From IMG/VR virus record IMGVR_UViG_3300021963_000027, positions 1 through 64,000 of that record: a stretch of 64,000 nucleotides of DNA; one strand, given 5' to 3'. This document shows, piece by piece, positions 26,631 through 52,141 of this stretch. A program made the translations under genes and the position numbers. The notes beneath the pieces are model-generated. The model saw nothing but the letters and a program-made list of their open reading frames with translations, had not been told where the DNA came from and made no database searches. The stretch's first letter is position 1, and each line of letters starts with the position of its first letter. The stretch is from a virus.

Positions 26631-26828
26631 ATGGTGACAAAATTAGAAAAACAATACGATGCGGGAGAAAATCTATCTTCCATTCAGAAAATTGATGAAA
26701 AGCTTTCTATTCTTCGTGAATCTTGGCAAGATGCTGGTGAGGATAAAAAAAATAAATGGATGAAAATGATTAACGAACAACTTGATCAACGCTTGACTTT
26801 GATGAGTATTCGTGATAACATGGGGTGA
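26631..26828 (+). CDS. hypothetical protein
   Basis: ORF. Confidence 0.75.
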   Translation: MVTKLEKQYDAGENLSSIQKIDEKLSILRESWQDAGEDKKNKWMKMINEQLDQRLTLMSIRDNMG

Positions 26829-26864
26829 TGGCAGAGTGGTAATGGTCTGGTCTTGAAAACCAGA
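26822..26864 (+). pseudogene. truncated tRNA-Ser(TGA) 5' part
   Basis: GGGGTGATGGCAGAGTGGTAA..CTGGT-CTTGAAA-ACCAG; no T-arm or acceptor 3' strand. Confidence 0.6.
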
Positions 26865-26926
26865 GACAACCCTGACAGGCATCTTAAAAAACTAGAATAC
26901 AATAACAACACAACAAAATAATATAT

Positions 26927-27097
26927 ATGGCTAATCGTAATACTAAATCGGCTCGCAGAGCGGGATTCGCAAGTAAAAAAGACCAGAACAACAACGGCAC
27001 TCGTATTTTCAAGGGCAAAGCTTGTGACACTGGATGGGATGCTCCTGAGAGTAAACACAAGAAGCGCAAGGTATATCAGCGCAACAATTCCAATTAA
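26927..27097 (+). CDS. 56-aa basic protein
   Basis: After M-promoter, A-rich leader. Confidence 0.65.
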   Translation: MANRNTKSARRAGFASKKDQNNNGTRIFKGKACDTGWDAPESKHKKRKVYQRNNSN

Positions 27098-27103
27098 CGA
27101 TTT

Positions 27104-27287
27104 TTCGCTTCGGCAGTATCAATAAATGACCAGAACCTCCCTCTACTATTCACTTAGCATGGAGACTGGTGGGATCGAGAAATAGAGCCTTCGGGTGCGC
27201 GGATAAAGTCAGTAATGACAGGTAGTAATTCTATCCTCCCTAAAACTCGGATACTGAAAAGGTAGGCGCAGACCGTTCCGAAGCGAA
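27104..27287 (+). ncRNA. 184-nt structured RNA of unknown class
   Basis: 10-bp closing helix, 7-bp second helix, UUCG and GUAA tetraloops. Confidence 0.65.
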
Positions 27288-27307
27288 TTAATTTTAATCA
27301 ATAAATT

Positions 27308-27508
27308 ATGAATATCATTGTAAAAAACGATAAAGGACATAGCTACTCCGACAGAGTTGAAGCTGTCGCTAGAAAAGGCGACTTCATTATTTTCGACGAA
27401 CAAGTTAAAGAAGTAAAAAGTGTTGTTTGGTATCCTGATTACGATTACATCAAAACTCATTACACATCAAACATAGGAAATATCACAGCATTCATTTGGG
27501 TAGAATAA
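27308..27508 (+). CDS. hypothetical protein
   Basis: ORF. Confidence 0.75.
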   Translation: MNIIVKNDKGHSYSDRVEAVARKGDFIIFDEQVKEVKSVVWYPDYDYIKTHYTSNIGNITAFIWVE

Positions 27509-27519
27509 TATTAAAAATT

Positions 27520-27825
27520 ATGTTTATAGAAATTGGAAAATATTTAGCAGAACAAAACATCACAGTAACACTTCATTTTAATTCAGAGACGAAACAACAC
27601 TATTGGGATTTAAACACCCAAGCAAAGTCTGATCTCCATCTATATGAAGATTTAACTTTGAAAGGTCGTTATGGTTATACTTCTAAGCTGGAAAACGAAA
27701 CTCTTGAAGAAAACATCCGAAGTCTTTGTTGGGAATTTAAAGACTGTCTTCATGGAAGAGATTACGGCTCATGTGCTTGGTTTGAGCTTTGTGAGAAAAA
27801 ACAATTTGACTATTTAAAAAACTAG
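27520..27825 (+). CDS. hypothetical protein
   Basis: Ends LKN*. Confidence 0.75.
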   Translation: MFIEIGKYLAEQNITVTLHFNSETKQHYWDLNTQAKSDLHLYEDLTLKGRYGYTSKLENETLEENIRSLCWEFKDCLHGRDYGSCAWFELCEKKQFDYLKN

Positions 27826-27839
27826 AATACAATTTCATC

Positions 27840-28214
27840 ATGAACGAACAACAAAAAGAAAACCTTAAATTGGGAATCAAAGCTTTACGCGAAAATCCCT
27901 TAAAAGCAAAAGATCAAATGCGTGACTCATCTGGAGGACGATGCTGTCTCTGTGTCTTGTCAGAAGTGGCAGAAGATATTCAGGGTGTTCCTCGCGGAAC
28001 TTTCACGTATTGCGAACCTGATGGGGAAGATGCTATAGCACCAACAAGCGATCTTGCCGAAATCTTCGGATTGCGTAATGTATCTATTTCACAGACGTTC
28101 AACTTTATGATTAATCATAAGATGGCATCTATCTGGAATGATGGTTTCGGTTATACATCTGAATTATCTCATGCAGAAATTGCTGATATGATTGAAAAAG
28201 AATTTCTAAGCTAA
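27840..28214 (+). CDS. hypothetical protein
   Basis: Leaderless; CCLC motif. Confidence 0.8.
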   Translation: MNEQQKENLKLGIKALRENPLKAKDQMRDSSGGRCCLCVLSEVAEDIQGVPRGTFTYCEPDGEDAIAPTSDLAEIFGLRNVSISQTFNFMINHKMASIWNDGFGYTSELSHAEIADMIEKEFLS

Positions 28215-28223
28215 AACAACATC

Positions 28224-28499
28224 ATGGAAACAGTTGAAACATACACACCAGTTCTACGCGAATACAAATTTGATTACTTCTCTGCTGAAATGGTGCTTGA
28301 TAGCTCTGGTGAATGGGTGCGCTATGAAGACTACAAAGAACTCTCAGAATATGCTGACAAGCTCGCAGAAGGGTTGCCATGCTTGCCAAAGGACATTGAA
28401 GTTCTCCGTGATGCTAACGCCACACTTGCTCAACGAGTCTTTGAACTTGAACAACAATTACATTATGACAAAGACTTATCCATTCTGGACAGTATTTAA
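28224..28499 (+). CDS. hypothetical protein
   Basis: ORF. Confidence 0.75.
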   Translation: METVETYTPVLREYKFDYFSAEMVLDSSGEWVRYEDYKELSEYADKLAEGLPCLPKDIEVLRDANATLAQRVFELEQQLHYDKDLSILDSI

Positions 28500-28722
28500 T
28501 CCACGCCGTATAATGCTCGGTAGTTGTGAGCATAAGATTAAAGTAACTCATCTTGGCAAAGGTATCTACGGGTGCCGAGTATTTACTAATGGTTTACTCA
28601 ATGCTGAGAATCGCTGCAAAGGTAAAGAGAACATTCGCTTTGCTTGTCGTGATCTATTGCGCTGGGAGTCTAAGTTAGGCAACATCAGCGATTTCTCTCA
28701 AGCATCTCGCTGTCGCCAATAA
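28465..28722 (+). CDS. hypothetical protein
   Basis: ORF. Confidence 0.6.
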   Translation: MTKTYPFWTVFNPRRIMLGSCEHKIKVTHLGKGIYGCRVFTNGLLNAENRCKGKENIRFACRDLLRWESKLGNISDFSQASRCRQ

Positions 28723-28743
28723 CGAACTCTGATACAATTAGGT

Positions 28744-28938
28744 ATGACCATTTCCAAACTTATTACTGAATTACAAAAGGCTCAAGCTGAACACGGAGAC
28801 GTTCCAGTTATGCTCGATGGCATGGAGTATCGAGAGGAGATTTACGACATTCGACTCTGCTATCCAACTAAGCCAGGGTATATTTGGTATGAAGAAGACA
28901 AGACTCAGCCAGTTAATGCAATCGTTCTCAATTCTTAA
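28744..28938 (+). CDS. hypothetical protein
   Basis: Flanked by 23-bp direct repeat of variant promoter. Confidence 0.8.
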   Translation: MTISKLITELQKAQAEHGDVPVMLDGMEYREEIYDIRLCYPTKPGYIWYEEDKTQPVNAIVLNS

Positions 28939-28981
28939 TAACGAACTCTGATATAATTAAAAACTAGAATACAATTGAGCC

Positions 28982-29284
28982 ATGTTTAAATTACCTTATA
29001 TTGGAGTAGGACTTATTTTGTTTCTAATCGGAATAGCTATGAATGCAGGATTATTTTCCTTTGGATTGGCTTTAATTGGTTGCTACATTCTTTCAAGAAT
29101 CATGGCACAAGATTTTGGTGTCCCTGCCTTTTTCGTTATTGGTATTTTTATTTTTGGATTAGCTTTTTTCGTAGCATCCCCTTTACTACAAGAAATTGGT
29201 GTTGATGTGGGAACAGCAAATATCGTCCGTATAGTAACAACATTGGCATCTGGTGTATTAACATGGTTATCAGTCCCGAAATAA
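28982..29284 (+). CDS. multi-pass membrane protein
   Basis: Hydrophobic; leaderless. Confidence 0.8.
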   Translation: MFKLPYIGVGLILFLIGIAMNAGLFSFGLALIGCYILSRIMAQDFGVPAFFVIGIFIFGLAFFVASPLLQEIGVDVGTANIVRIVTTLASGVLTWLSVPK

Positions 29285-29285
29285 T

Positions 29286-29558
29286 ATGAACAGAGAAGAA
29301 TCTCCTAAAACAAGCCAATTCGCATTGAATCTCTACGCTGCTGGATGCGTGGATGAAGCGATGGAATTCGAAAAGATGGAAAAAGAAATCCGCGAACTAA
29401 AAGAAAAATTTTCTTCTGGCAAGCCTGTTTGCCCTTTCTGTCTAACGGAAATGAAAACAATCGAATACCATGGATATTATGAATCGTTCCCAATGTGGGA
29501 ATGCAGATGTGAAAAATTCGAAAAACCAGATTACACAGCACATGGTGCTTACGCTTAA
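29286..29558 (+). CDS. hypothetical protein with CxxC motifs
   Basis: CPFC..CRC. Confidence 0.75.
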   Translation: MNREESPKTSQFALNLYAAGCVDEAMEFEKMEKEIRELKEKFSSGKPVCPFCLTEMKTIEYHGYYESFPMWECRCEKFEKPDYTAHGAYA

Positions 29559-29580
29559 AAAACTAGAATACAATCAACAC

Positions 29581-29898
29581 ATGACAATCGCTCAACAATT
29601 AAAGATCAAAGAATTCCCATTCAGCATCAAAGATTCCAATGGTAATGAGATTTACCACGAATATTCCGATGGATTTTGGATTAAACGTGAATACGATTCC
29701 AATGGTAATCGCAATCGCTTTGAAACGTCCACTGGTTACTGGTCAATTTGCGAGTATGACGAAGAAAATAGAGAGATTTACTGGGAGAACTCCGATGGAG
29801 AAATCCTCGACAATCGCCCCAAGACAGATGTTCAAAAAGCTATTGATCTTCTGACAAAAGAAGGATTGTTGGTGGATGGTAAGATTTTAAAAAACTAA
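29581..29898 (+). CDS. 21-aa-repeat family paralog A (3 units)
   Basis: MTIAQQLKIKEFPF..KREYDSNG..DNRPKT..ILKN. Confidence 0.9.
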   Translation: MTIAQQLKIKEFPFSIKDSNGNEIYHEYSDGFWIKREYDSNGNRNRFETSTGYWSICEYDEENREIYWENSDGEILDNRPKTDVQKAIDLLTKEGLLVDGKILKN

Positions 29899-29917
29899 GA
29901 TACAATCATAACATAAT

Positions 29918-30175
29918 ATGAAAACAATCGCACAACAACTTAACGTAAAGGAATTTCCATTCATTATCAAAGATTCTAATGGTAAAGTGATTTACTCCGA
30001 GAACTACAAAGGATATTGGATAAAGCGCGAGTGGGATTCCAAAGGTAATGTGATTTACTTCGAGAACTCCTATGGACAAATCGTTGATAATCGTCCTAAA
30101 ACAGAAATCCAAAAGGCTATTGATCTTCTCACAAAAGAAGGATTGATCGTAGATGGTAAGATTTTAAAAAACTAG
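29918..30175 (+). CDS. 21-aa-repeat family paralog B (2 units)
   Basis: Same family. Confidence 0.9.
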   Translation: MKTIAQQLNVKEFPFIIKDSNGKVIYSENYKGYWIKREWDSKGNVIYFENSYGQIVDNRPKTEIQKAIDLLTKEGLIVDGKILKN

Positions 30176-30189
30176 AATACACTTGGGAC

Positions 30190-30417
30190 ATGACACATAC
30201 ATTTGAAGTAGAAGTAGATGATGAGATTTACGAATCCGAAGTTGATATCGTTCGCATTTATAGCGATTGGGAACACGGTTACGATGGTGAGATTTGCCCT
30301 ACTGGTGATGTGATCGATTGGGAAATTGATATTCTCGATCTAACTCTCTCTCCCAAAGTTACACAAAAAATGAAAGAAGTTGCCACGAAATGGGCAGCAG
30401 AATACATGAAATATTAA
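30190..30417 (+). CDS. acidic hypothetical protein
   Basis: Leaderless. Confidence 0.8.
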   Translation: MTHTFEVEVDDEIYESEVDIVRIYSDWEHGYDGEICPTGDVIDWEIDILDLTLSPKVTQKMKEVATKWAAEYMKY

Positions 30418-30418
30418 A

Positions 30419-30919
30419 ATGCACGAAATATACAATCCCATTAATCTTTTAAACAAAGAAGTTGAAATCTCTTATCATGTTAGTGATTTGGGAGAAGATG
30501 CTAAAGTAATTGAAATTGAACCTGTAGATGGGCAAAGACGATTTGAAATTGTTTTTGCGAAATTTCCAGAGGAACAAGATGACGAACGCTTTTTTTGGAC
30601 AGATCAAAAACCGTATGAGATTGTTGGTGATAAAGCTGTATTCTCTGATATTGGTCATCCACGAAGAATTTACTTGAATATTAAAAAACTAGAGTATACT
30701 GAAGAAGTAACAAGTGAACAAACAAACAACGAATCAAATATGAAAACAACTGTTAAAGAATTGAGCGATAAATTGGGTGTTGATGTGGTCTATATCAATG
30801 GATTCCTTCAAACACTGGTCAAGATTGGTAAAGCAGAAGTGGTCGGTAAGGTTGAAAAACCTGCTGGTGCGCGTGGTAAACCATCTAACATCTATCAAAT
30901 CGCAGAAGGTATTCTGTAA
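30419..30919 (+). CDS. hypothetical protein; in-frame join of two units via internal M-promoter (second start 30740, HTH-like)
   Basis: Motif at 30683 read as KKLEYT. Confidence 0.6.
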   Translation: MHEIYNPINLLNKEVEISYHVSDLGEDAKVIEIEPVDGQRRFEIVFAKFPEEQDDERFFWTDQKPYEIVGDKAVFSDIGHPRRIYLNIKKLEYTEEVTSEQTNNESNMKTTVKELSDKLGVDVVYINGFLQTLVKIGKAEVVGKVEKPAGARGKPSNIYQIAEGIL

Positions 30920-30927
30920 ATTTTAAT

Positions 30928-31153
30928 GAAACAGCGGCGTGGAAAGTAGACACGCAGGAACAAAAGAACTGGAACAAAACCAACACGGAGATGCACCGAG
31001 ATGTGATTGTGAGTGAAGGTTGTATGACCGAAGAGAAGACCCGTGCATGGGGAGAAGACGGGAGCTTGATGTGGTGTCACATTTTAACGCTCAACAATAC
31101 GTCGATGGGTTTTAAACTCATTCTAGCAGGAGTTACACCCTGCCTGTTTCACC
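30928..31153 (+). ncRNA. tRNA-like RNA with large insertion replacing anticodon arm
   Basis: Acceptor GAAACAG/CTGTTTC+ACC, D-like arm GCGTG/CACGC, T-like arm GCAGG/CCTGC. Confidence 0.55.
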
Positions 31154-31162
31154 TTTTTTAAT

Positions 31163-31274
31163 GAAGCAACGGTGTGGATGGAGACACATAGACCTCGACC
31201 CCAGAGATGGATGATGGTCGCCTTACCCCAAAGTCAAAGGATAGGTGCAGTTGGTTCGAATCCAACTTGCTTCG
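31163..31274 (+). ncRNA. tRNA-like RNA with non-canonical anticodon domain
   Basis: Acceptor GAAGCAA/TTGCTTC, T-arm GTTGG-TTCGAAT-CCAAC. Confidence 0.65.
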
Positions 31275-31393
31275 CTTTTTTTAATATGAACTTAGAACTG
31301 AAAAACATACTAGAAAATCAAGCATGGGATGATGAATTCTATGCAGCCATGTTGGAGAAATCACAACAACAATCGCGTATAATATAAACAATA

Positions 31394-31771
31394 ATGAAGA
31401 TATTTAACTTTGGAAAATACAAAGGACTAAGCATACAAAGAGTTGCCTTTGGAAATCCAAATTATGTTAGATGGGCGATTGAAAATGTTGCTGGATTCGA
31501 AGAGTTGGCTAAAGACATTGAAATTCCAGAAACAAAAATCAAGAACATGGCAAGCCATAATCAATACAGCGAACTGTATGATGAAAAAATGCCATCCGAT
31601 CACGGATCAGAGGTTACAGATGATAGAGGATGCGTAATAGGTACAAGATACTACAGGCGATCTTCAACTGGTAGCGATCTTGAATGTCATACTGTATATC
31701 CAAATGGATCAGGAGTTTGGCATGGTGGAATGGGCGGCGATCTGTATTACGATGAATTCGGGAACACTTAA
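31394..31771 (+). CDS. hypothetical protein with FGKYKG (ExoX C-terminal-like) motif
   Basis: FNFGKYKG..PNYVRWA. Confidence 0.75.
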   Translation: MKIFNFGKYKGLSIQRVAFGNPNYVRWAIENVAGFEELAKDIEIPETKIKNMASHNQYSELYDEKMPSDHGSEVTDDRGCVIGTRYYRRSSTGSDLECHTVYPNGSGVWHGGMGGDLYYDEFGNT

Positions 31772-31797
31772 TTAAAAAACTAGATTACTATTGTGAC

Positions 31798-32154
31798 ATG
31801 CTTAAAGAAACTTTATTTGAACTTTTCGGTGAACTTAATACAGTTCATGAATTGGATGAATGCGGTTATGCTCGTTATTCCACCGATGACTTTATCATCT
31901 GTGTTGATGAATATCATGGTTTTCATATCGTCTCTGTAGATTTAAAAGAGGTCTTCAACAAGACTTCACAATCTCCCATTCACTTCGAATTCTCGGAATA
32001 CAAACCACTCTCCAAGCGTAAGAAAGATCGCATTCGTGAAGCTATGCGATTCTTGATTAAGAATCGGAAAGATGCTGGTGGTTTCTTTGGATGTATGGAT
32101 GGGTTCGACGATTTGAGTTCTGATATTCGACGAGCATTTTATCAAACAATCTAA
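31798..32154 (+). CDS. hypothetical protein
   Basis: Leaderless. Confidence 0.8.
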   Translation: MLKETLFELFGELNTVHELDECGYARYSTDDFIICVDEYHGFHIVSVDLKEVFNKTSQSPIHFEFSEYKPLSKRKKDRIREAMRFLIKNRKDAGGFFGCMDGFDDLSSDIRRAFYQTI

Positions 32155-32242
32155 CAATTTTGGTGGGGAGGTGGGATACCATGAGTGTGGTCATTCTGTC
32201 ATTGTCTTTTTCATACCCTCCTCACCATCAATTTTCAAATAT

Positions 32243-32476
32243 ATGGAACTGATTCCTATAGAATATAAAATAAAACACGATTTCAACGAATACACTTACT
32301 ACATCGTGTCGAGAAATACCAATAAAGGGAACCAAAAATGGTTTATCACTATGTATCGTAAAGAAATTTATTTTAATATTGAAGATATGTCTTGGACGTA
32401 TTTTGCTTTGGATTGGTGCGGTTTCAACAAACCTGAAGAAGCTTTGGAAGCTTTTGAAAAATATCTTAAAAACTAG
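32243..32476 (+). CDS. hypothetical protein
   Basis: Ends LKN*. Confidence 0.7.
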   Translation: MELIPIEYKIKHDFNEYTYYIVSRNTNKGNQKWFITMYRKEIYFNIEDMSWTYFALDWCGFNKPEEALEAFEKYLKN

Positions 32477-32490
32477 AATACAATCGTGTC

Positions 32491-32757
32491 ATGCAGAAAC
32501 GTTATTACATGTATCTCCCAATGAATATCGACAAAGAAAAGAATACTCGCTTTGTCGTGGAAACTGATGGCATCCCTCAAAGTGATTTGTTCACTGGTAG
32601 AGTCGTCGCTCGTAATTCCAAAGCTTATTTCCATCTTGGTCGTGTAATGAATGAGTGGGTCAATCCCATGGCAGACTTGCGAAATGGTATGCAACCATCT
32701 TTTATTCCTATCAGTCTATCAGAGGTCAAAGAGAAATTTGAACAACACATTTTATAA
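32491..32757 (+). CDS. hypothetical protein
   Basis: Leaderless. Confidence 0.8.
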   Translation: MQKRYYMYLPMNIDKEKNTRFVVETDGIPQSDLFTGRVVARNSKAYFHLGRVMNEWVNPMADLRNGMQPSFIPISLSEVKEKFEQHIL

Positions 32758-32759
32758 TT

Positions 32760-33038
32760 ATGAAAAAAGAAATCGCAGAACTTATTGTTGAAAATAGCTA
32801 CGACATGGACATTCGTGAGGATTACAGTGGTCGAGGAATGTTTGGGAATACCACTACTGGTATCGTGTGTGATAGCGAGAAAGATTTTTATAACGCCATT
32901 GGTGAACTTTACATGGAAATGATCAAAGATGCTATGATTGAAGCTGAAAATTATGATATGGAGCCAGCACAAGAACTAACAGAAACAATCGGTCGAATTC
33001 GCGTTGATAACATGGGATATCGTTATATTTTTTACTGA
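32760..33038 (+). CDS. hypothetical protein
   Basis: YSGRGMFG motif. Confidence 0.8.
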   Translation: MKKEIAELIVENSYDMDIREDYSGRGMFGNTTTGIVCDSEKDFYNAIGELYMEMIKDAMIEAENYDMEPAQELTETIGRIRVDNMGYRYIFY

Positions 33039-33256
33039 TGATAGAAGAACGATCAATATTCATCGAAGAAGGACAAAGCGTATTCTTCCCCAGAGTTGGT
33101 CTTTGTTTTCATAAATCATTTTCGGATAAATTTAAAGGACTGACATTCCCCCAAGCAAGGCGTAAATTGAAGAAGTCTTTCACACATAGTCAGCAAGATC
33201 ACATCATGCACTATCTGAAACAAAAAGGAATCACAATATCACCATTAAAAAACTAG
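33038..33256 (+). CDS. hypothetical protein
   Basis: Ends LKN*. Confidence 0.7.
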   Translation: MIEERSIFIEEGQSVFFPRVGLCFHKSFSDKFKGLTFPQARRKLKKSFTHSQQDHIMHYLKQKGITISPLKN

Positions 33257-33299: not shown

Positions 33300-34328
33300 A
33301 TGGCACACGAAATTGAAATCGGAACTGATCGGGTAATCACATTTGGCGAACGCGCATGGCATCGTCTCGATGAGAATCACCAGACTCCTCTTACTAAAGA
33401 GATTATCAATCCTTTGTTCATTCCTTATCTGGAAGGGCAAGCTAACGTCAACATCGATGGGGTAGAAGTACCTCTTGAGGGTTGGAAGACTATTGTTGCT
33501 GATCTTCGTAACAGTGACATTGAAGGCGATTTCCGTCCTGTTCATGTTGCGTCTGATCGCTATGAGATTCTCCAAAATGAAGTCTTGTTCGATGCACTGC
33601 AAGAGGCACTGCGTGGAATCAATTACAATATCGTATCTGCTGGCACACTGGCAGGTCTAAAGAACTTCTTCGTATCGGTGGAATTCAATGGAGAATCGAA
33701 TATCAATCTACCTGATGGTAGTGAGTGCAAAGCGTTCTTCTCCCTCTTTACTTCTCATGATGGCACGAAAAATGCTTCCTACTACGATACGACACATCGC
33801 ACTGTTTGCATGAACACTGTTCGTTCTTCTTATCAAGCTCGCGGTAATCAAGGGTTCAACATCGCTCACACCAAAAACGCAAGTGTGCGTATCATGAACA
33901 TGGCTCAAATCTTCAATGATACTCTCCATGGTCGTCGTGTCTTCGAAGAGAATATGGCTGAATTGTATTCCATTGAATGCGATTTGTCCAAAGCAGAACG
34001 ATTCGTTGCTGGTTTCTTGGCAGACAAGACAAAAGCCGAAGAGAAGCTTTCCACACGCTCTTTCAACCAAATGACAGAGATTGTCGCTCTTGCTTGGAAC
34101 GGTGCTGGTAATCGCGGTGGCAATCTGTTCTACCTTGCCCAAGGTGCTACTGAGTATTGGACTCGCGGCAATGGCACTGGTGGTGCAAACAAAGACCTCG
34201 GACGCAAAGCATTCTCTTCTGAGTTCGGTCTTGGCATGGATAACAAGTGCAATTTCCTCTCTGCTCTTAGCAATCCATCGCAACGTGAGAAATTCATCAA
34301 GCGGGGAGATTTGGTTCTTAGCAACTGA
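33300..34328 (+). CDS. DUF932 family protein
   Basis: MAHEI..AWHRL..SHDGT..RTVCMNT. Confidence 0.85.
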   Translation: MAHEIEIGTDRVITFGERAWHRLDENHQTPLTKEIINPLFIPYLEGQANVNIDGVEVPLEGWKTIVADLRNSDIEGDFRPVHVASDRYEILQNEVLFDALQEALRGINYNIVSAGTLAGLKNFFVSVEFNGESNINLPDGSECKAFFSLFTSHDGTKNASYYDTTHRTVCMNTVRSSYQARGNQGFNIAHTKNASVRIMNMAQIFNDTLHGRRVFEENMAELYSIECDLSKAERFVAGFLADKTKAEEKLSTRSFNQMTEIVALAWNGAGNRGGNLFYLAQGATEYWTRGNGTGGANKDLGRKAFSSEFGLGMDNKCNFLSALSNPSQREKFIKRGDLVLSN

Positions 34329-34385
34329 TCCCTACGCCCCCCCCCCCCTCCCTCCCTAATTAAAAAACTAGAATAAAATAATCGC

Positions 34386-41644: not shown

Positions 41645-41739
41645 AAGGGTGTACCAGTACGCACTTCTAATGCGTGGACGTTTAAATATACTGTAATTGG
41701 ATATGTCCTATGTAGGTTCGAATCCTATCATCCTTGCCA
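41645..41739 (+). tRNA. atypical tRNA-Arg(TCT)-like RNA, no D-arm, 36-nt variable region
   Basis: Acceptor AAGGGTG/CATCCTT+GCCA; ACGCA-CTTCTAA-TGCGT; GTAGG-TTCGAAT-CCTAT. Confidence 0.65.
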
Positions 41740-42655
41740 CTTTTCTAATGAAATAACCTCTTGGTGGGTAATCTATAATACCATATGATTTACACCACTT
41801 TCTAACAGCATTATCTGATATATTATATTTCTTTCCTATTTTTGTGAATGGTAATTCCCATAGTAAATTCTCCAATTCTTCTTTACTAGGTTTTATTCGA
41901 TGTGAATATTGTTTGATCGCAGAACATCGTTTACACCTATAAGACGTTTTGGATATATCAACACCGCAATCTAAACACTTTTTAACCACTTTGTTTTTTG
42001 GAACATAATTGAAGTAATCAAATTCAACTTTAACATTCGCATTTGATAACTTATCTATAAAATCACTCCACTTATCTAAATTAAAACATGCTGAATAATG
42101 AATCTCATATACATCCCATCCACTAAATTCTAACAAATCATGTCTTTCCTGATAGTAAGCTTTCAATGTTCCATCTCTTTCATAATGTTGATTACCATTG
42201 ATTTCTAAAGCTATCATCTTATCGGGTAATGCTATATCAATTGAAAAAGCTCTCCCATTAATCTCTGGTTGATATTCTTCTATAAATGGTATATTCAATT
42301 GAGATAGAAATTCTTTCACTTTCTCACAAGGTTTTGATTTGAACTTGTCTTTATTTCTCCATGGATGTTTATCGGGATTATCTTTCAACCATTGCTTTCT
42401 CTTCTCTGATAGATTCCTTTTTGTTTCCTCTGTATGTTTTTTTCTTATGTTGATATTTTCATTGACGATGAATAATTTTTGTTCTCTCGCATTTTTAAGT
42501 GCTGCATATGGTAATTTATATTCCTTCCTTAATTTAGACATTGTAACGCCTCTATCGTGTAACTCTTGAATATGATTCCAGTCGTATCTATCTTCTAATT
42601 TACCCCATCGCAACTCATTCATGATTTTTGCTCTATCTTTATCAATCGAACTCAT
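41708..42655 (-). CDS. PD-(D/E)XK (DUF559/Vsr-like) endonuclease with NUMOD3-like, Zn-ribbon and HTH parts
   Basis: FSIDIALPDKMIALEINGNQHY; CLDCG..CKRC; TAAATA 5 nt upstream of ATG 42655. Confidence 0.8.
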   Translation of the reverse strand: MSSIDKDRAKIMNELRWGKLEDRYDWNHIQELHDRGVTMSKLRKEYKLPYAALKNAREQKLFIVNENINIRKKHTEETKRNLSEKRKQWLKDNPDKHPWRNKDKFKSKPCEKVKEFLSQLNIPFIEEYQPEINGRAFSIDIALPDKMIALEINGNQHYERDGTLKAYYQERHDLLEFSGWDVYEIHYSACFNLDKWSDFIDKLSNANVKVEFDYFNYVPKNKVVKKCLDCGVDISKTSYRCKRCSAIKQYSHRIKPSKEELENLLWELPFTKIGKKYNISDNAVRKWCKSYGIIDYPPRGYFIRKVARMIGFEPT

Positions 42656-42748
42656 ATTATTATTTATCTCCAATGTTAATATTTTTGCTCTATCCAATAA
42701 ATAAAGATATTGACTAATTAAAAAACTAGAATACACTTTTCATACAAT

Positions 42749-42820
42749 GCGCTTGTAGCTAATTGGTCTAGCGATCTGCTCATAACGGATGGCAAGCAGG
42801 TTCGATTCCTGTCGGGCGCA
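42749..42820 (+). tRNA. tRNA-Met/Ile2 (CAT)
   Basis: Cloverleaf, ATCTG-CTCATAA-CGGAT; no encoded CCA. Confidence 0.85.
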
Positions 42821-42854
42821 TCAACTTTTTAAAAAACTAGAATACAATCAACAC

Positions 42855-43879: not shown

Positions 43880-43885
43880 AATACT

Positions 43886-45540: not shown

Positions 45541-45562
45541 AAAACTAGAATACAATTTACAC

Positions 45563-45958: not shown

Positions 45959-45987
45959 TTAAAAAACTAGATTACAATTATACCATC

Positions 45988-46323
45988 ATGAAAGTTACTA
46001 CAGAAAACGTTATCAATGCCATCGTTCGGGAAAAAATCAGTCACCGTGGTGGTGGAGTGGAAATCGATTTGAGCCAATTTGGATTCCCCGATGGTTCTCT
46101 CATGTCTGCTTATCAAAATTACCTTGGTGGTGGCATGTTGGGAGCAATCCAAAGCAATCACAACATGTTCCGCATGGAATTCACTAAAGCACAAGAGAAA
46201 AAGATTGAGAACTTGTCAGAGATTCTCAAGCGTTATCTCCATGATCAAACGAATCATGAAGATGATGAATGGGAAAGCGCAACATATTTCCAAAATCAAA
46301 TGCGCCCAACCTCTGCTTATTAA
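45988..46323 (+). CDS. hypothetical protein
   Basis: Motif-bounded. Confidence 0.8.
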   Translation: MKVTTENVINAIVREKISHRGGGVEIDLSQFGFPDGSLMSAYQNYLGGGMLGAIQSNHNMFRMEFTKAQEKKIENLSEILKRYLHDQTNHEDDEWESATYFQNQMRPTSAY

Positions 46324-46348
46324 AAAACTAGACTAAAATTGCACCATC

Positions 46349-46594
46349 ATGAAATACTTACCGACTATCGACCTCTGGAATCCCGCTGTGAATTACGCTG
46401 TTCGCACAGGACAATTGAAATTACAAGCGGGACAATGGGTGAAATGTGGCAATGAGAAGAAATCCCGCTTCGTCTGTGTAAAGCCTAAGAGCGGCACAAT
46501 CTGGGCAAGCCATTGGCAAGGGAATAGTAAAAGCACCAACGAGCGTTTCAAAACGTTGTTGGAAGCATCCAAAGGAATTAAAAAACTAGCTTAA
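46349..46594 (+). CDS. hypothetical protein
   Basis: Motif-bounded. Confidence 0.8.
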   Translation: MKYLPTIDLWNPAVNYAVRTGQLKLQAGQWVKCGNEKKSRFVCVKPKSGTIWASHWQGNSKSTNERFKTLLEASKGIKKLA

Positions 46595-46603
46595 TATTGA
46601 GGC

Positions 46604-46768
46604 ATGACAAAAGAATTAACTGAAAAATACCTTGAAACAGCAATCAGAAGAAAATCTTATCTTCTTGATCGTATCTCGAAAGTGACAGATATTCTCGAAG
46701 AATTGGAAGGCGATCTGGAGGATGTGGAGAACGAAATCCAAGACTTGCAAAGCGTTTTAAAAAACTAA
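46604..46768 (+). CDS. small coiled-coil protein
   Basis: Leaderless, ends LKN*. Confidence 0.7.
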   Translation: MTKELTEKYLETAIRRKSYLLDRISKVTDILEELEGDLEDVENEIQDLQSVLKN

Positions 46769-46787
46769 GATACAATCATAACATAAC

Positions 46788-47168
46788 ATGACAATCGCTC
46801 AACAACTTAACGTAAAGGAATTTCCATTCATTATCAAAGATTCCAATGGTAAAGAGATTTACTGGGAGAACTCTGATGGACTTTGGGAGAAGCGTGAATA
46901 CGATTCTAATGGTAAAGAGATTTACTACGAGGACTCCTATGGATTTTGGATTAAGCGTGAATACGATTCTAATGGTAAAGTGATTTACTCCGAGAACTAC
47001 AAAGGATATTGGATAAAGCGCGAGTGGGATTCCAAAGGTAATGTGATTTACTTCGAGAACTCCTATGGACAAATCGTTGATAATCGTCCCAAGACAGATG
47101 TTCAGAAAGCTATTGAACTTCTCACGAAAGAAGGATTGCTGGAAGATGGTGAGATTTTAAAAAACTAG
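46788..47168 (+). CDS. 21-aa-repeat family paralog F (4 units)
   Basis: Same family. Confidence 0.9.
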   Translation: MTIAQQLNVKEFPFIIKDSNGKEIYWENSDGLWEKREYDSNGKEIYYEDSYGFWIKREYDSNGKVIYSENYKGYWIKREWDSKGNVIYFENSYGQIVDNRPKTDVQKAIELLTKEGLLEDGEILKN

Positions 47169-47182
47169 AATACAATCAACAC

Positions 47183-47452
47183 ATGTTCTTTACATATCGT
47201 CAAAACAACTCAGGTGGTAGATTCATTGGTGAAATCAATATCATCATCGAAGCCGATTCAGCAAAAGAAGCTGATGAAATTGCACAAGAAAACGGTGTAT
47301 ATTTCGATGGCGTTGATGAGGGTCACGACTGCGGATGCTGCGGTGATCGCTGGTCACGCGCATGGGAAAGTGATGGCACGGAAAATCCTGAAATTTACGA
47401 TGAAGCAGTAGGTGAAAGTCACAATTGCAAAATCGTTAGAAAACAAGCTTAA
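47183..47452 (+). CDS. conserved phage hypothetical protein
   Basis: YRQNNSGG..DCGCCGDRWS. Confidence 0.85.
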   Translation: MFFTYRQNNSGGRFIGEINIIIEADSAKEADEIAQENGVYFDGVDEGHDCGCCGDRWSRAWESDGTENPEIYDEAVGESHNCKIVRKQA

Positions 47453-47458
47453 TCTTGG

Positions 47459-47509
47459 TAACATGGTAAAGACCTCTCCCTTGGTGGTTCTTGGGAGAGG
47501 CAAATGTTA
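47459..47509 (+). other. GC-rich stem-loop (family with 53565 and 56376)
   Basis: CCTCTCCC/GGGAGAGG followed by CAA. Confidence 0.7.
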
Positions 47510-47543
47510 CAACAATTAAAAAACTAGACTATCATTGAGCCAT

Positions 47544-47798
47544 ATGAAAAACGAAATTCAATCTTATCGCGAAACAATTAAAAAGCTTGAAGAAACCAGA
47601 CAAAACACAGCAATTCTCGAAGTGGGTTGCGAGGTAACTTTAGCTAACGGAACGAAACAAATCATTTCAAAAGTAGAATTCGATGAAGCATATGGTGAGA
47701 ATGCATTTTACCGATGGGACAGATTCTTTCCGTATGAAATCGAACACGCTGCGATGTATGGCTCGAACTTGGAAATCGTGGATGTAAAACACAATTAA
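47544..47798 (+). CDS. hypothetical protein
   Basis: Motif-bounded. Confidence 0.8.
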   Translation: MKNEIQSYRETIKKLEETRQNTAILEVGCEVTLANGTKQIISKVEFDEAYGENAFYRWDRFFPYEIEHAAMYGSNLEIVDVKHN

Positions 47799-47823
47799 AA
47801 AACTAGATTAGAATTAGAGCATC

Positions 47824-48003
47824 ATGAAACAATATCCCACTCACGAAGAAATCTATGAGCAAATCAGAAAGCTTGTCCTTGGCAATGTCAATCACGCATC
47901 CATGCACAATCGCGAATCATTGGATGATTTGATTGCTGATCTGGAGCAATATCGTGATACTCTTCCAAGTGTCGATGAATACATGAAGGTAAACAAACTC
48001 TGA
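47824..48003 (+). CDS. hypothetical protein (59 aa)
   Basis: Motif-bounded. Confidence 0.7.
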   Translation: MKQYPTHEEIYEQIRKLVLGNVNHASMHNRESLDDLIADLEQYRDTLPSVDEYMKVNKL

Positions 48004-48030
48004 ATTAAAAAACTAGAATACAATTACATC

Positions 48031-48189
48031 ATGCAATCCATTTACATTATCGCAGCTTTCTTCGCTGGTTATCTTTTGCCAGAATTTATTAAGATGCTCG
48101 CACCTCGCAATTACACTGTTCCATTTATGATGAACATTATGTGCGGTTTCATCGCCTCTGCAATTCTCCACTACATCCTTACTCACTAA
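48031..48189 (+). CDS. small membrane protein
   Basis: Leaderless. Confidence 0.7.
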   Translation: MQSIYIIAAFFAGYLLPEFIKMLAPRNYTVPFMMNIMCGFIASAILHYILTH

Positions 48190-48229
48190 TATCGAACTCA
48201 GAATTAAAAAACTAGATTAGAATTGAGCC

Positions 48230-48460
48230 ATGACAAACAACATCGTAGTAATCAAAATCCACAATGCAAGAGTATCATCTGTTTACAGTGTAGATACCAT
48301 AGAAAATGCCAAAGCACTGGTGAGTGATCTATTCTTTAGCCAATTCCATCGCTCCCTCAATGAAGAGGAAATTGATGATCTGGAAGTATTCATGGAATTG
48401 TATAATGACGAAGACCATGACAATCAATTCACATTCTCCATCTCATTCGTTGACAATTAA
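48230..48460 (+). CDS. hypothetical protein (paralog of 52175)
   Basis: Leaderless. Confidence 0.8.
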   Translation: MTNNIVVIKIHNARVSSVYSVDTIENAKALVSDLFFSQFHRSLNEEEIDDLEVFMELYNDEDHDNQFTFSISFVDN

Positions 48461-48484
48461 AAAACTAGAGTAACATTGAGCCAT

Positions 48485-48694
48485 ATGAAAAAACAATATC
48501 TCATAATCCAATTGGAAACCAAAGAGAGTCAAGTTCCTGATGGTTATCACATGACTACGAGAACAGAGTATTTTGGCGTTACTAATGGTTATCCTATCAC
48601 TTTCGATACACTGGAAGAAGCAGAAAAAGAATTGGCACTGCGGATTGGTAAATGGTCTAAATACACGATCATCCCCCTTTACACTCAAGAATAA
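48485..48694 (+). CDS. hypothetical protein
   Basis: Motif-bounded. Confidence 0.75.
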   Translation: MKKQYLIIQLETKESQVPDGYHMTTRTEYFGVTNGYPITFDTLEEAEKELALRIGKWSKYTIIPLYTQE

Positions 48695-48717
48695 AAAAAC
48701 TAGATTAAAATTAGGAC

Positions 48718-48912
48718 ATGGAAAGTATTAAACGATACAATTGGACAATCCGCAACACTGTTACTGATAAGATAGTTGGGTATAATTGTCGGTTCTGCGC
48801 TTGTGACGAAAATCATGTTCGTAGTAGTCCATCGGTTCAAATTTGGGCAAATGGTGATGAAATCGAAGTGATTGCAGAATCATTCAGTGACTTCGATGAA
48901 TTAGTGGGATAA
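48718..48912 (+). CDS. hypothetical protein
   Basis: Leaderless. Confidence 0.75.
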   Translation: MESIKRYNWTIRNTVTDKIVGYNCRFCACDENHVRSSPSVQIWANGDEIEVIAESFSDFDELVG

Positions 48913-48934
48913 AAAACTAGATTAGAATTGGGAC

Positions 48935-49117
48935 ATGGAAACAACCAAAGAAAAGATGGAGAAAGCTTACGAGAGCTTGAAAAACATTCAAGAAATCCTA
49001 AGCACTGTAGTTGCCTCTGAAATTGATCAGACTTTCGACTTCTATCGCATGACAAATAACGTTTTCATTGCAAAAATGCACATGGAACATATTCTCCAAC
49101 ACCCAATTAAAAACTAG
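48935..49117 (+). CDS. hypothetical protein
   Basis: Leaderless, ends IKN*. Confidence 0.75.
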   Translation: METTKEKMEKAYESLKNIQEILSTVVASEIDQTFDFYRMTNNVFIAKMHMEHILQHPIKN

Positions 49118-49133
49118 AACATACTTTCATTCT

Positions 49134-49201
49134 ACGGAGAAATAGGGTTCAAGTCCCTTAGTCTAGCAATCGCTAGTCATAGCATACTGGTCATGCGCCG
49201 T
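49134..49201 (+). ncRNA. circularly permuted tRNA-like RNA (T-arm, loop-closed acceptor, D-arm)
   Basis: ACGG..AGGG-TTCAAGT-CCCT..CTAGC-AATC-GCTAG..TA-GCAT-ACTGGTC-ATGC-G-CCGT; own M-promoter. Confidence 0.7.
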
Positions 49202-49232
49202 TTTTCTTTAAAAACTAGATTAGAATTAGGAC

Positions 49233-49619
49233 ATGCAAAAGATCAGCACAACACAATTCGGTGGTATCAAAGTCACCATGTTTCTCTCCAACACCAAGCA
49301 ACCAACTTGGTCAAACGGTAATCATGATCATTATCGAGTGAAGATTGAACATGAGGGAAAATCCCACACTTTCGATTTTTGGGGTAGCATTGCCAATAAA
49401 GAAAATAATCAATTGGAGAATGTAAAAAATGCTCTGAATTGCTTTGCCAGTGATTGCGATCTGGGAGAGGGTGAATTCAAAGACTTCATCTGGAAAACAG
49501 GTGGATTCGAAGATTCAAAGAATTTGAAAATCTTCAAAGCTTGTCAGAAATCCCATAAAGCAATGAAACGCTTGAACATTCCCAACGATGTTTTCCTTGG
49601 ATGGTTGGACGGTGAATAA
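49233..49619 (+). CDS. hypothetical protein
   Basis: Leaderless. Confidence 0.85.
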   Translation: MQKISTTQFGGIKVTMFLSNTKQPTWSNGNHDHYRVKIEHEGKSHTFDFWGSIANKENNQLENVKNALNCFASDCDLGEGEFKDFIWKTGGFEDSKNLKIFKACQKSHKAMKRLNIPNDVFLGWLDGE

Positions 49620-49641
49620 AAAACTAGATTAGAATTGGGAC

Positions 49642-49923
49642 ATGACAACAATCCATCTAATCAACCTTTGTAGAGAATCAGATTTTCAAAAGAAATACGG
49701 TTCGCAAGTCTATTACGATATTTCAAAGGCTAAAAAGGAATCAAATTGTTTCGATGATGTTATTCGTTCCCTACAACAAGAACACGATGATTTTGTTGGG
49801 TTCTCAGGAGAAGAACACACTAAACAACGCAAGCAAGACATTCAAAACGCAATTCAATTTTTGAACGATTACAAAGAAAATGTCAATCTCGCCAACATGA
49901 CAGTTCAATTTGTAGAATATTAA
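49642..49923 (+). CDS. hypothetical protein
   Basis: Leaderless. Confidence 0.8.
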   Translation: MTTIHLINLCRESDFQKKYGSQVYYDISKAKKESNCFDDVIRSLQQEHDDFVGFSGEEHTKQRKQDIQNAIQFLNDYKENVNLANMTVQFVEY

Positions 49924-49945
49924 AAAACTAGATTAGAATTAGGAC

Positions 49946-50212
49946 ATGCGAACATACATTCAATATAAAGACGGAAAACAAAAAGAAGTCAAGAATCTGG
50001 GTTGGTTAGCTCGTAATATCACCCGTGTCGAAGGTATCACAATCAGCGATAGAAACGATGGTGCGAAATGCGGATGCCAATTCGTGGCAACTCTATCGGG
50101 AGGGGATTACTACCACACTGCATTCAATTCTTACGATGTTTGTAAAGATTGGATTGCAAGCCGTAGAGGACTGAAAAACGTTCGTGTCATTGATCTTGTC
50201 GATCTCATTTAA
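49946..50212 (+). CDS. hypothetical protein
   Basis: Leaderless. Confidence 0.8.
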   Translation: MRTYIQYKDGKQKEVKNLGWLARNITRVEGITISDRNDGAKCGCQFVATLSGGDYYHTAFNSYDVCKDWIASRRGLKNVRVIDLVDLI

Positions 50213-50234
50213 AAAACTAGAATAGAATTAGAAC

Positions 50235-50447
50235 ATGACAGAGACTATTATCATAAATCATTTTACTGGTTATCGTAAGTTGATCCTTACAAAAGGTTTA
50301 CCCAAGATTGGAACTCTAAGAAAACACCTGCGAGCAAGTAAAGCCCAAGGATGCCAAAGCGTAACCCATATTTTCACGGAACAAGGTGTAATTGATGTCA
50401 CACGATTCGGGGAAGTTCTAATCAATGGAAGACAATTAAAAAACTAG
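50235..50447 (+). CDS. hypothetical protein
   Basis: Leaderless, ends LKN*. Confidence 0.8.
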   Translation: MTETIIINHFTGYRKLILTKGLPKIGTLRKHLRASKAQGCQSVTHIFTEQGVIDVTRFGEVLINGRQLKN

Positions 50448-50461
50448 AATACAATTACACC

Positions 50462-50755
50462 ATGCCTATTATTGAACCAAATTTAAGCAAAGAAGTCAAA
50501 GCATACATTGCTAAAGAATGTCACCGCATCTTGAAAGCAGTGGAAGAGGGTCGTGCAATCAAATACGTGGGACTGTGCTCCAATTCCAAGATGGATGAAA
50601 AATTACTAATCAGCCTTAAAGATGTTTTCCATAAATCCTACCCTTTCAATAGTAGTGGTGGGGAATATGGAGCGGAAGCTATGTCACAATCAATCTTTAA
50701 AAATAAAAAGCGCATGGCATTTCTTCGTCGATGGGCAAAGAAACATAAAAACTAG
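50462..50755 (+). CDS. basic hypothetical protein
   Basis: Leaderless. Confidence 0.8.
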   Translation: MPIIEPNLSKEVKAYIAKECHRILKAVEEGRAIKYVGLCSNSKMDEKLLISLKDVFHKSYPFNSSGGEYGAEAMSQSIFKNKKRMAFLRRWAKKHKN

Positions 50756-50769
50756 AATACACTTGGGAC

Positions 50770-50973
50770 ATGAAAAGATACAGATACGATCCTTATTGTG
50801 ATAGCTTCAAGTGCTTCCAAGGAATGGAAGAATCACCTGATGGTGATTGGGTGAACATCGAAGCAAGAGAACTCCTGAAACGTGCGATGGATTTACTACA
50901 AGATTATTGCACGGAACTCAATGGCATGAATTGCTATCTCAGCAAAGAGATTGAAGAATTTCTTAAAAACTAA
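50770..50973 (+). CDS. hypothetical protein
   Basis: Leaderless. Confidence 0.8.
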   Translation: MKRYRYDPYCDSFKCFQGMEESPDGDWVNIEARELLKRAMDLLQDYCTELNGMNCYLSKEIEEFLKN

Positions 50974-50987
50974 GATTCAATAAACAC

Positions 50988-51191
50988 ATGAACAGAAGCA
51001 GAATCGCATTGGTTTACATGGATGATGGAAACAATTTCTTCATCGAAAATCCCCCGAATGGTAATCCCGAAACATGGATTGATCATCATGTTTATTCCAT
51101 CTCTAATGTGGAGAATGTCATAGTTTATGATTTGGGAGGGGTGGTAGAGAATTGGGTAAATCCTGATGTGTCATCCGAAGAAGAGGAATAA
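50988..51191 (+). CDS. acidic hypothetical protein
   Basis: Leaderless. Confidence 0.75.
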   Translation: MNRSRIALVYMDDGNNFFIENPPNGNPETWIDHHVYSISNVENVIVYDLGGVVENWVNPDVSSEEEE

Positions 51192-51213
51192 AAAACTAGA
51201 TTAAAATAAACAC

Positions 51214-51351
51214 ATGATGACACTTGAACAAATTATCAATTTCTTCAAATCTCTGGAAGAAATCACCCATGAAAACATGGAATCTGAATCAGATAGAACG
51301 GAATTGTTGCGCTGTGTTGCTCTAGCAGAAAATGCTCTTCGCGGTGGTTAA
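51214..51351 (+). CDS. hypothetical protein (45 aa)
   Basis: Leaderless. Confidence 0.65.
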   Translation: MMTLEQIINFFKSLEEITHENMESESDRTELLRCVALAENALRGG

Positions 51352-51395
51352 TCAACATGATTAAAAACATTGATAAACCAAGGAAAAACGACTGC

Positions 51396-51433
51396 GACAA
51401 AATGACGCAGGGGTGTGACAAAATGACGCAGGG
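51396..51433. repeat. 17-bp direct repeat GACAAAATGACGCAGGG x2, period 21 bp
   Basis: 51396-51412 and 51417-51433; related copy at 53704-53724. Confidence 0.85.
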
Positions 51434-51485
51434 ATAGACGGATATAGAAAAGAATATAAATAAAAAACTAGAGTAAAATTTTACT

Positions 51486-51728
51486 ATGCTCAACATCACC
51501 ATTGATCCCAAAGAAATCCGCGCTGAATATCGTGAAGACCAAAGCAATCGCGGATGGTTGTATATCTCAGTTCCTAACGGATGGGATGACGTATCAAAAT
51601 TGTGTAAGAAAGTTCTCACGTATGACAATCGCAAATTCTTTTATAGTGGTTGGAATTCCGATAGAAATGATTGTTTCTTCAAGGAAGAACTGGTAGGAAG
51701 TTCCACGGTGGTAGCACGAATCAATTAA
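51486..51728 (+). CDS. hypothetical protein
   Basis: Leaderless. Confidence 0.8.
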   Translation: MLNITIDPKEIRAEYREDQSNRGWLYISVPNGWDDVSKLCKKVLTYDNRKFFYSGWNSDRNDCFFKEELVGSSTVVARIN

Positions 51729-51749
51729 AAACTAGAATAAACTGATAAC

Positions 51750-51929
51750 ATGATAAGACAATACACCAATCAACTACTGGAAATGATCGACAACGGAATC
51801 CTTGATGCTGAAACGGTTCTCCGTTCGTGTCTCTCTTATATGTCCGAAGCAGAAGTGCAGGACATGGCAGAATCCGAGGGATTCATCGAAGAAGAGGAAG
51901 AGGAAGAGGAAGAGGACGAAGAAGAGTAA
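51750..51929 (+). CDS. acidic protein with poly-Glu tail
   Basis: Leaderless. Confidence 0.75.
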   Translation: MIRQYTNQLLEMIDNGILDAETVLRSCLSYMSEAEVQDMAESEGFIEEEEEEEEEDEEE

Positions 51930-51939
51930 AATCCCCCCT

Positions 51940-52029
51940 CAGTCTCAATAAGGGCATTTTCAAGAATCCTTGATATATCAATGAAAAAAGTCATTTTGCT
52001 CTAGGACTATTTGAAGCTTATTGAGACTG
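51940..52029. repeat. 90-bp element with 13-bp terminal inverted repeats
   Basis: CAGTCTCAATAAG / CTTATTGAGACTG; internal palindrome TTGATATATCAA. Confidence 0.85.
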
Positions 52030-52066
52030 GAAAACACAAATTAAAAAACTAGACTAATATGTGTAT

Positions 52067-52141
52067 GTTGTCGGTGGCGAAGTGGTAACGCGAGGCTGAA
52101 TTAACAGCAAGAAACGTGAGTTCGATTCTCACCCGACGACA
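52067..52141 (+). ncRNA. tRNA-like RNA with 6-nt AATTAA anticodon loop
   Basis: Acceptor GTTGTCGG/CCGACGAC, D-arm, GTGAG-TTCGATT-CTCAC; starts at +1 of M-promoter. Confidence 0.7.

Follow-up and report, generated by a model that had tools for sequence, protein, structure and literature searches.

Six elements derived from transfer RNA (tRNA) lie dispersed over the first 64 kb (hereafter the window) of IMG/VR record IMGVR_UViG_3300021963_000027, a 184-kb contig, with an estimated completeness of 89 %, from an uncultured T4-like phage. All six are located outside the main tRNA cluster, which ARAGORN and Rfam place at 61.6–63.2 kb of the window. A first-pass annotation had listed them as a coordinated arsenal of anticodon-defective tRNA mimics directed against host immunity. 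Each element was found to be real and tRNA-related, at the position first given for it. The idea of a coordinated set was not borne out, as each has its own patchy distribution among relatives and they do not co-occur. We consider it probable, with a confidence of about 65 %, that the six are independent products of rapid tRNA-gene turnover in the early promoter-cassette region of this T4-like clade, and not parts of one system. The six are alike neither in origin and age nor in conservation and likely function, and range from a decayed tRNA-Ser gene (A), through two members of an array of structured RNAs (B and C) and a tRNA-Arg that probably decodes (D), to two RNAs that appear to be lineage-specific, promoter-driven, non-decoding tRNA shapes (E and F).

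For comparison we used seven related contigs (G001–G007), obtained via flanking proteins and DNA patterns, together with ~1 Mb of extra sequence in more than 60 further contigs returned by a scan for the promoter motif of the region. The resulting ~1.6 Mb of relatives was searched by local blastn, by ARAGORN and by ARAGORN after circularization of the sequence. Outside the main cluster of the window, ARAGORN and Rfam call one canonical tRNA-Met, a seventh dispersed gene that had not been counted earlier, and two odd tRNAs, D and E. The gathering score of the Rfam tRNA model (RF00005; 29 bits) is reached by D and E (Table 1) and not by A, B, C or F, and Rfam searches of the window and its relatives, at gathering and lax thresholds, returned tRNA matches and no other RNA family.

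A probable tRNA-Arg with a permuted core

The phage's working tRNA for AGA is most likely D, which as such is probably a functional decoder as opposed to a mimic. We read it in this way because of its anticodon arm, its discriminator and CCA end, its GGAUA string, its covariation, its locus and the use of AGA by the phage. The description of the elements as anticodon-defective holds for B, C, E and F, which have no usable anticodon loop, and fails for D, whose anticodon arm is perfect (ACGCA-CUUCUAA-UGCGU), with five pairs and a 7-nt loop in which position 33 is U and position 37 a purine. G73 is the discriminator, and an encoded CCA comes next. Between the acceptor stem and the anticodon arm there is no D arm, only UACCAGU, and in the Rfam alignment D is a tRNA that lacks a D arm and has a variable arm of 33 nt. 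This apparent variable arm contains the D-loop UAAUUGGAUA, and the D-stem strand CAGU, 5′ of the anticodon arm, can pair with an ACUG that stands 3′ of the arm just before UAAUUGGAUA; ACUG and D-loop are enclosed by an extra helix, GGACGU/AUGUCC. The string GGAUA is present in three of the four tRNA-Arg D-loops of the clade as against none of its 72 other tRNAs, and D carries it after the anticodon arm. With A20 in the GGAUA D-loop, C35, U36 and G73, the Arg identity set is present. In the fold that we propose, the D-stem would enclose the anticodon arm and the D-loop strand, with the Arg identity base A20, would run on to the T arm; the RNA could therefore still form an L-shape with the usual elbow.

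A wider family was sought by a pattern scan of IMG/VR, which returned G001, G004 and two chance matches in coding sequence, and by a regular-expression search over fetched loci, which returned L087. The latter (L087:4510–4590, minus strand) is a compact permuted-core tRNA-Arg(UCU) of 81 nt with the same layout as D; it is missed by ARAGORN, and the same promoter motif comes after it. Compared with this compact form, D has the additional 6-bp helix GGACGU/AUGUCC, hence its length of 95 nt. When D, the G001 copy and L087 were aligned, 94.8 % of cells were paired and nine compensatory pairs were seen, compared with ~40 % and 0–2 in slid controls. One of the nine is supplied by the split D-stem, which reads CAG/CUG in D and CGG/CCG in L087. 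Structural constraint on D is supported.

The locus is informative as well. In G002 its occupant is a canonical tRNA-Arg(UCU), with the same HNH endonuclease gene next to it; the window endonuclease has 73 % amino-acid identity to the gene that separates the canonical tRNA-Arg from tRNA-Met in G002. AGA accounts for 48 % of Arg codons in long open reading frames (ORFs), making it the commonest Arg codon, and there is no other tRNA-Arg in the genome. We considered the possibility that the rearrangement protects D from its neighbouring homing endonuclease, and rejected it since the same endonuclease adjoins the canonical tRNA-Arg of G002. In the window, G001 and G002, the HNH gene has a tRNA-Arg-type gene on one side and tRNA-Met on the other, in parallel with T4 SegB beside tRNA-Arg; in the window its last ~10 codons overlap the 3′ end of D. 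The tRNA-Met(CAU) beyond it has its own promoter motif (at 42721) and is a mosaic when compared with the G001 copy (L007:1505–1577), with the same acceptor and T stems and different D and anticodon arms.

RNAs with tRNA-like ends in a variable tandem array

B and C are units of a tandem array of variable content, made up of structured RNAs whose ends are tRNA-like. They lie in tandem downstream of a 59-aa gene, and each begins with AAUGAARCARCGG and ends with the acceptor 3′ strand, after which come ACC or GC and then a U run. In B, which has the ACC form of this end, a 7-bp acceptor-like stem, a D-like hairpin and a T-like hairpin are accompanied by an internal domain of ~170 nt, and the 'T loop' is the non-canonical 8-nt AGUUACAC. 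C has, before its U run, an acceptor stem of 7 bp, a D arm and a T arm of canonical type (GGUUCGAAUCC), with two hairpins (or a 32-nt insert) in the position of the anticodon arm; ARAGORN reads it as a tRNA only when a 32-nt insert in the anticodon loop is permitted.

A homologue of B in the distant relative G006 (L023:7826–8056, minus strand) keeps all predicted helices, with 11 compensatory pairs as against 0–1 in slid controls, a test that is partly circular as the structure was predicted from the same B/G006 alignment. Structural constraint on B is supported. In the G003 copy the ends of B are kept and the interior is different. An identity as a protein gene was rejected, as the internal ORF of 56 aa is not conserved and has no counterpart in G006, and Rfam gave no match to B even at the lax threshold. 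C is 100 % identical in G003 and 96 % identical in G007. The tRNA model gives the G007 copy 20 bits; Rfam gives no report for the window copy. Array content varies even among close relatives, with B and C in the window, four units in G003 and another set in G007.

A number of further RNAs were seen in the relatives. The G003 array (L009:5291–5760) has two extra tRNA-like units, one upstream of its B copy (B′) and the other called by ARAGORN as tRNA-Val(AAC), albeit with C33 in place of U33 and nested inside a longer stem. In G006, ~330 nt of apparently non-coding sequence (L023:8060–8390, minus strand) lies between tRNA-Met and the B homologue, and long-range complementarity within it, of CCACATTCCAGCC... 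with ...GGTTGGAATGTGG, suggests another structured RNA. A separate tRNA-like class of 102 nt is found in G006 (134939–135040, minus strand) and G007 (85132–85233), with Rfam scores of 41 and 36 bits, respectively; it has normal acceptor, D and T arms and ~50 nt in the place of the anticodon arm, and is absent from the window's genome. Two known kinds of RNA were tried for B and C and set aside: ARAGORN reports no transfer-messenger RNA, even at an 80 % threshold, and there is no Rfam match to one; and a group I intron would need longer inserts, and again has no Rfam match.

The closest parallel is with T4 rnaC and rnaD (species 1 and 2), which specify stable tRNA-like RNAs beside tRNA-Arg and the SegB endonuclease gene. 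Both cases involve a T4-like phage in which non-coding RNAs stand in tandem, with tRNA genes and a gene for a homing endonuclease next to them, and T4 RNA C resembles B and C in having a canonical T arm and an acceptor-type stem end around a long inner domain. There is, however, no sequence homology, only an 11-nt T loop being common to them; B and C have a clear D-type hairpin, and they stand in an array of variable content away from the main tRNA cluster. The roles of T4 RNA C and RNA D are still unknown (PMC3014915). In B and C an unrelated inner domain is set within a predicted tRNA-like framework of acceptor stem, D hairpin and T-type hairpin. These tRNA-like ends may recruit RNase P, 3′ trimming and the CCA-adding enzyme, and the RNAs would thereby gain stability and defined ends, as T4 RNA C and RNA D do.

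Predicted promoter-driven tRNA shapes without a usable anticodon

From ~9.5 to 57 kb of the window, nearly every small plus-strand gene has TTAAAAAACTAGAATACAAT upstream. The 10-mer core of the motif has 104 matches with one mismatch allowed, against 11 expected, and a −10-like TAnAAT ends ~7 nt upstream of the ATG, so that the motif genes look like leaderless one-gene cassettes. E and F are each found downstream of their own AAAAACTAGA-TAnAAT copy of this motif, with a predicted transcription start at the first base of the element (for E, its first G), in line with the original claim that two elements have promoters of their own.

E has a 7-bp acceptor stem with an added G-1:C73 pair, and U8 is present. 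Its D and T arms are normal, the T loop being UUCGAUU; CCA is not encoded. A G-1:C73 pair is the identity mark of bacterial tRNA-His. The anticodon region is abnormal, with a 4-bp stem (GCUG/CAGC) in a shifted register and a 6-nt loop (AAUUAA), and lies at least two indels away from a normal arm. No homologue of E was found by blastn in the related contigs or by pattern scans, the only matches to its D-arm pattern being unrelated tRNA-Cys, tRNA-His, tRNA-Met and tRNA-Asn genes, which we discounted.

F is, judged by its arm order and its matches, a derivative of a CAU tRNA by circular permutation, which probably took place via a tandem duplicate. It comprises, in order, the anticodon-stem 3′ strand, an AGAAA variable loop, a T arm (UUCAAGU loop), an acceptor stem closed by the tetraloop AAUC, a D arm, the anticodon-stem 5′ strand and a U run. 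Between the halves, six of seven acceptor pairs and four anticodon-stem pairs are kept, and the closing stem has 4–5 pairs. In its D arm, anticodon stem and variable loop F matches the dispersed CAU tRNA found in G001 and G004, and a UCAU remnant is found just upstream of the predicted start. With default settings ARAGORN reports a 74-nt cloverleaf only once F has been circularized, and the only scores among 26,301 circularized windows of the 184-kb genome come from F and from artefacts within the real tRNA cluster. In a correction to the first-pass annotation, F is permuted, and its anticodon arm is not simply missing. Blastn over the relatives and two pattern scans (IMG/VR and metagenomes) found no homologue of F, and no Rfam family matches it. 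The circularized matches seen in the 1.6 Mb of relatives are few, lie inside coding genes and have poor T loops; all were dismissed as weak false positives.

Two known kinds of RNA resemble F. Permuted tRNA genes are known from red and green algae, a nucleomorph and Thermofilum pendens, and in the algae and the archaeon mature via a circular RNA (Soma, 2014; PMC3978253). As in those genes, the 3′ half of F stands upstream of its 5′ half, and a few bases join the acceptor ends; as in their type II, the break falls in the anticodon loop. Permuted tRNA genes nevertheless need a bulge–helix–bulge motif and a splicing endonuclease, and the loop remnants of F do not restore a normal anticodon loop. 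The genome yielded neither a PF01974 tRNA-splicing endonuclease nor RtcB, and archaeal-type splicing was rejected on this ground; our literature search returned no report of a permuted tRNA gene in a phage. The second resemblance is to YrlA, a tRNA-like Y RNA of bacteria and phages in which a T arm, a closed acceptor-like stem and a D arm follow one another; one YrlA, whose acceptor-like stem has 7 bp, is cleaved by RNase P and has CCA added (Chen et al., 2014; PMC4201824). F has the same order from variable region to D arm, as well as a terminal closing stem, but is without the long Ro60-binding stem and the GNCGAA motif. With no Ro60/TROVE gene in the genome and no Rfam match, a YrlA/Ro60 particle was discarded as an explanation.

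If functional at all, E and F would present a tRNA elbow and an acceptor stem to tRNA-binding proteins. Taken together with B and C, they are predicted to be tRNA-shaped RNAs unable to decode.

A decayed tRNA-Ser gene

A is, by comparison with its counterparts, a dead tRNA-Ser gene. As had been proposed, it is a 5′ fragment, retaining the acceptor 5′ strand, the D arm, the anticodon arm and part of the variable arm of tRNA-Ser(UGA), with the T arm and 3′ acceptor strand deleted. It shares 95 % identity with the 5′ 65 nt of an intact 88-nt tRNA-Ser(UGA) at the same site in G002 (L017:6099–6186), 95 % with sequences in two further motif-bearing loci, and 83 % with a G007 tRNA of matching length (87 nt; not typed). 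In further relatives, tRNA-Ser(UGA) genes are called by ARAGORN; Rfam finds nothing at A. In G003, a 98 %-identical relative, it is the D and anticodon arms that are deleted from the same site; with different deletions in genomes so nearly identical, the decay is unconstrained. The first-pass annotation had proposed to set conservation in relatives against decay, with unconstrained decay as the outcome that would speak against its reading: B and D are structurally constrained, and A shows such decay.

Alternative explanations

The reading first offered for these elements is that non-decoding tRNA shapes act as decoys that soak up anticodon nucleases or tRNA-directed immunity, with repair by RNA ligases and resupply from the tRNA cluster. 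Phage tRNAs do counter tRNA-cleaving defences, non-canonical tRNA-like RNAs recur in this clade, and B, C, E and F keep an acceptor stem, D hairpin and T-type hairpin without a usable anticodon loop. Moreover, the two RNA ligases and the YqeY-domain gene that had been named alongside the elements are present, on the strength of PHROG and Pfam matches (Table 1). The same four RNAs are, however, without exactly the part that an anticodon nuclease recognizes, the anticodon loop. A is decaying, D is in our reading a decoder, and the elements fail to co-occur. Neither RtcB nor the PTH2-like protein was found (no PF01981 match for the latter), nor was a T4-type Pnk kinase, for which the absence of an AAA_33 match rests on a single Pfam model and is not conclusive. 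Proteins adjoining the elements have no informative or tRNA-related Pfam match, and no defence or anti-defence gene, or trigger, is linked to any of them. A decoy role for B, C, E and F is possible, and the full scheme of decoys, repair and resupply is improbable. It is also doubtful, if somewhat less so, that the clade produces tRNA-shaped RNAs by way of non-cloverleaf topologies, with D as a charged, decoding tRNA-Arg with a non-circularly permuted core, and with F, which has a closed acceptor stem, and E, which has a His-type G-1:C73, as expressed non-decoding mimics by which tRNA-binding proteins of the host, perhaps defence nucleases or sensors, are titrated or misled.

A more deflationary account takes E and F, and perhaps C, as non-functional by-products of recombination among tRNA cassettes that are transcribed only through the ubiquitous motif promoter. 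This we regard as a tentative possibility: E and F are singletons, the tRNA genes of the clade are mosaic with one visibly decaying, and the loop of E contains GAATTAA, a string common just upstream of the motif. Set against this, in E and F only the anticodon region is damaged and the helices and loops of the acceptor, D and T parts are near-perfect, the two RNAs fill their cassettes exactly from the predicted start, and F retains its pairing between halves. Very little probability attaches to the proposal that F and C are split or interrupted genes rebuilt into working tRNAs at the RNA level, the ends of F being joined in the anticodon loop by RNA ligase and its acceptor loop opened by RNase P, and the 32-nt insert of C being removed. 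T4 Rnl1 seals breaks in anticodon loops, and an Rnl1-like ligase is encoded here; ARAGORN accepts C as an insert-bearing tRNA. A precedent for such rebuilding exists in the circular-RNA maturation of permuted tRNA genes in algae and one archaeon (PMC3978253). The enzymes are nevertheless missing from our searches (splicing endonuclease, RtcB and Pnk-type kinase), the loop remnants of F give no proper 7-nt loop with U33 and a purine at 37, and the insert of C is far too short for the group I intron that Rfam likewise fails to find.

Our preferred reading, that of independent products of tRNA-gene turnover, has several points weighing against it. All six elements are known from sequence alone. 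Constraint cannot be shown for E and F, as no homologues were found, and both may be recent debris behind a promoter, particularly as everything in their region lies behind one. The fold of C is a prediction only, all of its homologues being near-identical. The D family consists here of three sequences, two of them nearly identical, and the fourth pair of its a.b helix is broken in two of the three. Finally, circularizing and scanning has a background of a few weak matches per Mb.

Genomic setting

The features discussed above are collected in Table 1. Across positions 9500–57000 we count ~90 one-gene cassettes, each with TTAAAAAACTAGAATACAAT, which implies leaderless transcripts and per-gene promoters; the motif also marks more than 60 other IMG/VR contigs. 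A C-rich tract, CCCCCCCCCCCCTCCCTCCC, lies at 34340–34363, directly upstream of a cassette promoter. Scans for sigma-70 promoters and intrinsic terminators around B, C and D gave results at chance level only. Accessory genes with Pfam matches include a His_Phos_1 histidine phosphatase (25642–26211), a protein that lies immediately downstream of the B/C array and has an ExoX-like_C motif at its N terminus (31394–31771) and a DUF932 protein (33300–34328).

Table 1. Coordinates of the tRNA-derived elements and associated features in the window
Feature	Position	Strand	Basis
A, 3′-truncated tRNA-Ser(UGA) pseudogene	26822–26885	+	Match to intact G002 gene
B, 226-nt structured RNA	30928–31153	+	Covariation with G006 homologue
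C, 113-nt tRNA-like RNA	31163–31275	+	ARAGORN with inserts allowed
D, permuted-core tRNA-Arg(UCU) (probable), 95 nt, encoded CCA	41645–41739	+	Rfam tRNA, 31.3 bits; covariation
E, pseudo-tRNA	52067–52140	+	Rfam tRNA, 36.7 bits; ARAGORN 'tRNA-???', anticodon (tt)
E motif promoter, AAAAACTAGA then TAATAT	52044–52060	+	Motif scan
F, circularly permuted tRNA-like RNA	49132–49208	+	ARAGORN after circularizing
F motif promoter, AAAAACTAGA then CATACT	49109–49125	+	Motif scan
tRNA-Met(CAU), canonical, dispersed	42748–42822	+	ARAGORN; Rfam, 51.4 bits
HNH homing-endonuclease gene between D and tRNA-Met	41708–42655	−	PHROG HNH families
Rnl1/gp63-like RNA ligase	3833–4924	+	phrog_562, E = 5e-35
Second RNA ligase	23282–24661	+	phrog_968, E = 2e-52; Pfam RNA_ligase and PHA02142 OB-fold domain
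YqeY-domain gene	5601–6026	+	PF09424, 143 bits

Significance

As one of the six elements is plainly decaying, odd tRNA relics in phage genomes should not automatically be taken for anti-defence weapons. T4 RNA C and RNA D have been a puzzle for 50 years; B and C widen it to a family for which comparative data exist, and so make it testable. With F, a permuted tRNA-type gene would have been seen for the first time in a bacterial virus, and F may link permuted tRNA genes with the Y-RNA-like tRNA mimics. If D is indeed charged and decoding, then the universal order of arms in the cloverleaf would not be obligatory, and standard tRNA finders would be missing a class of phage tRNAs.

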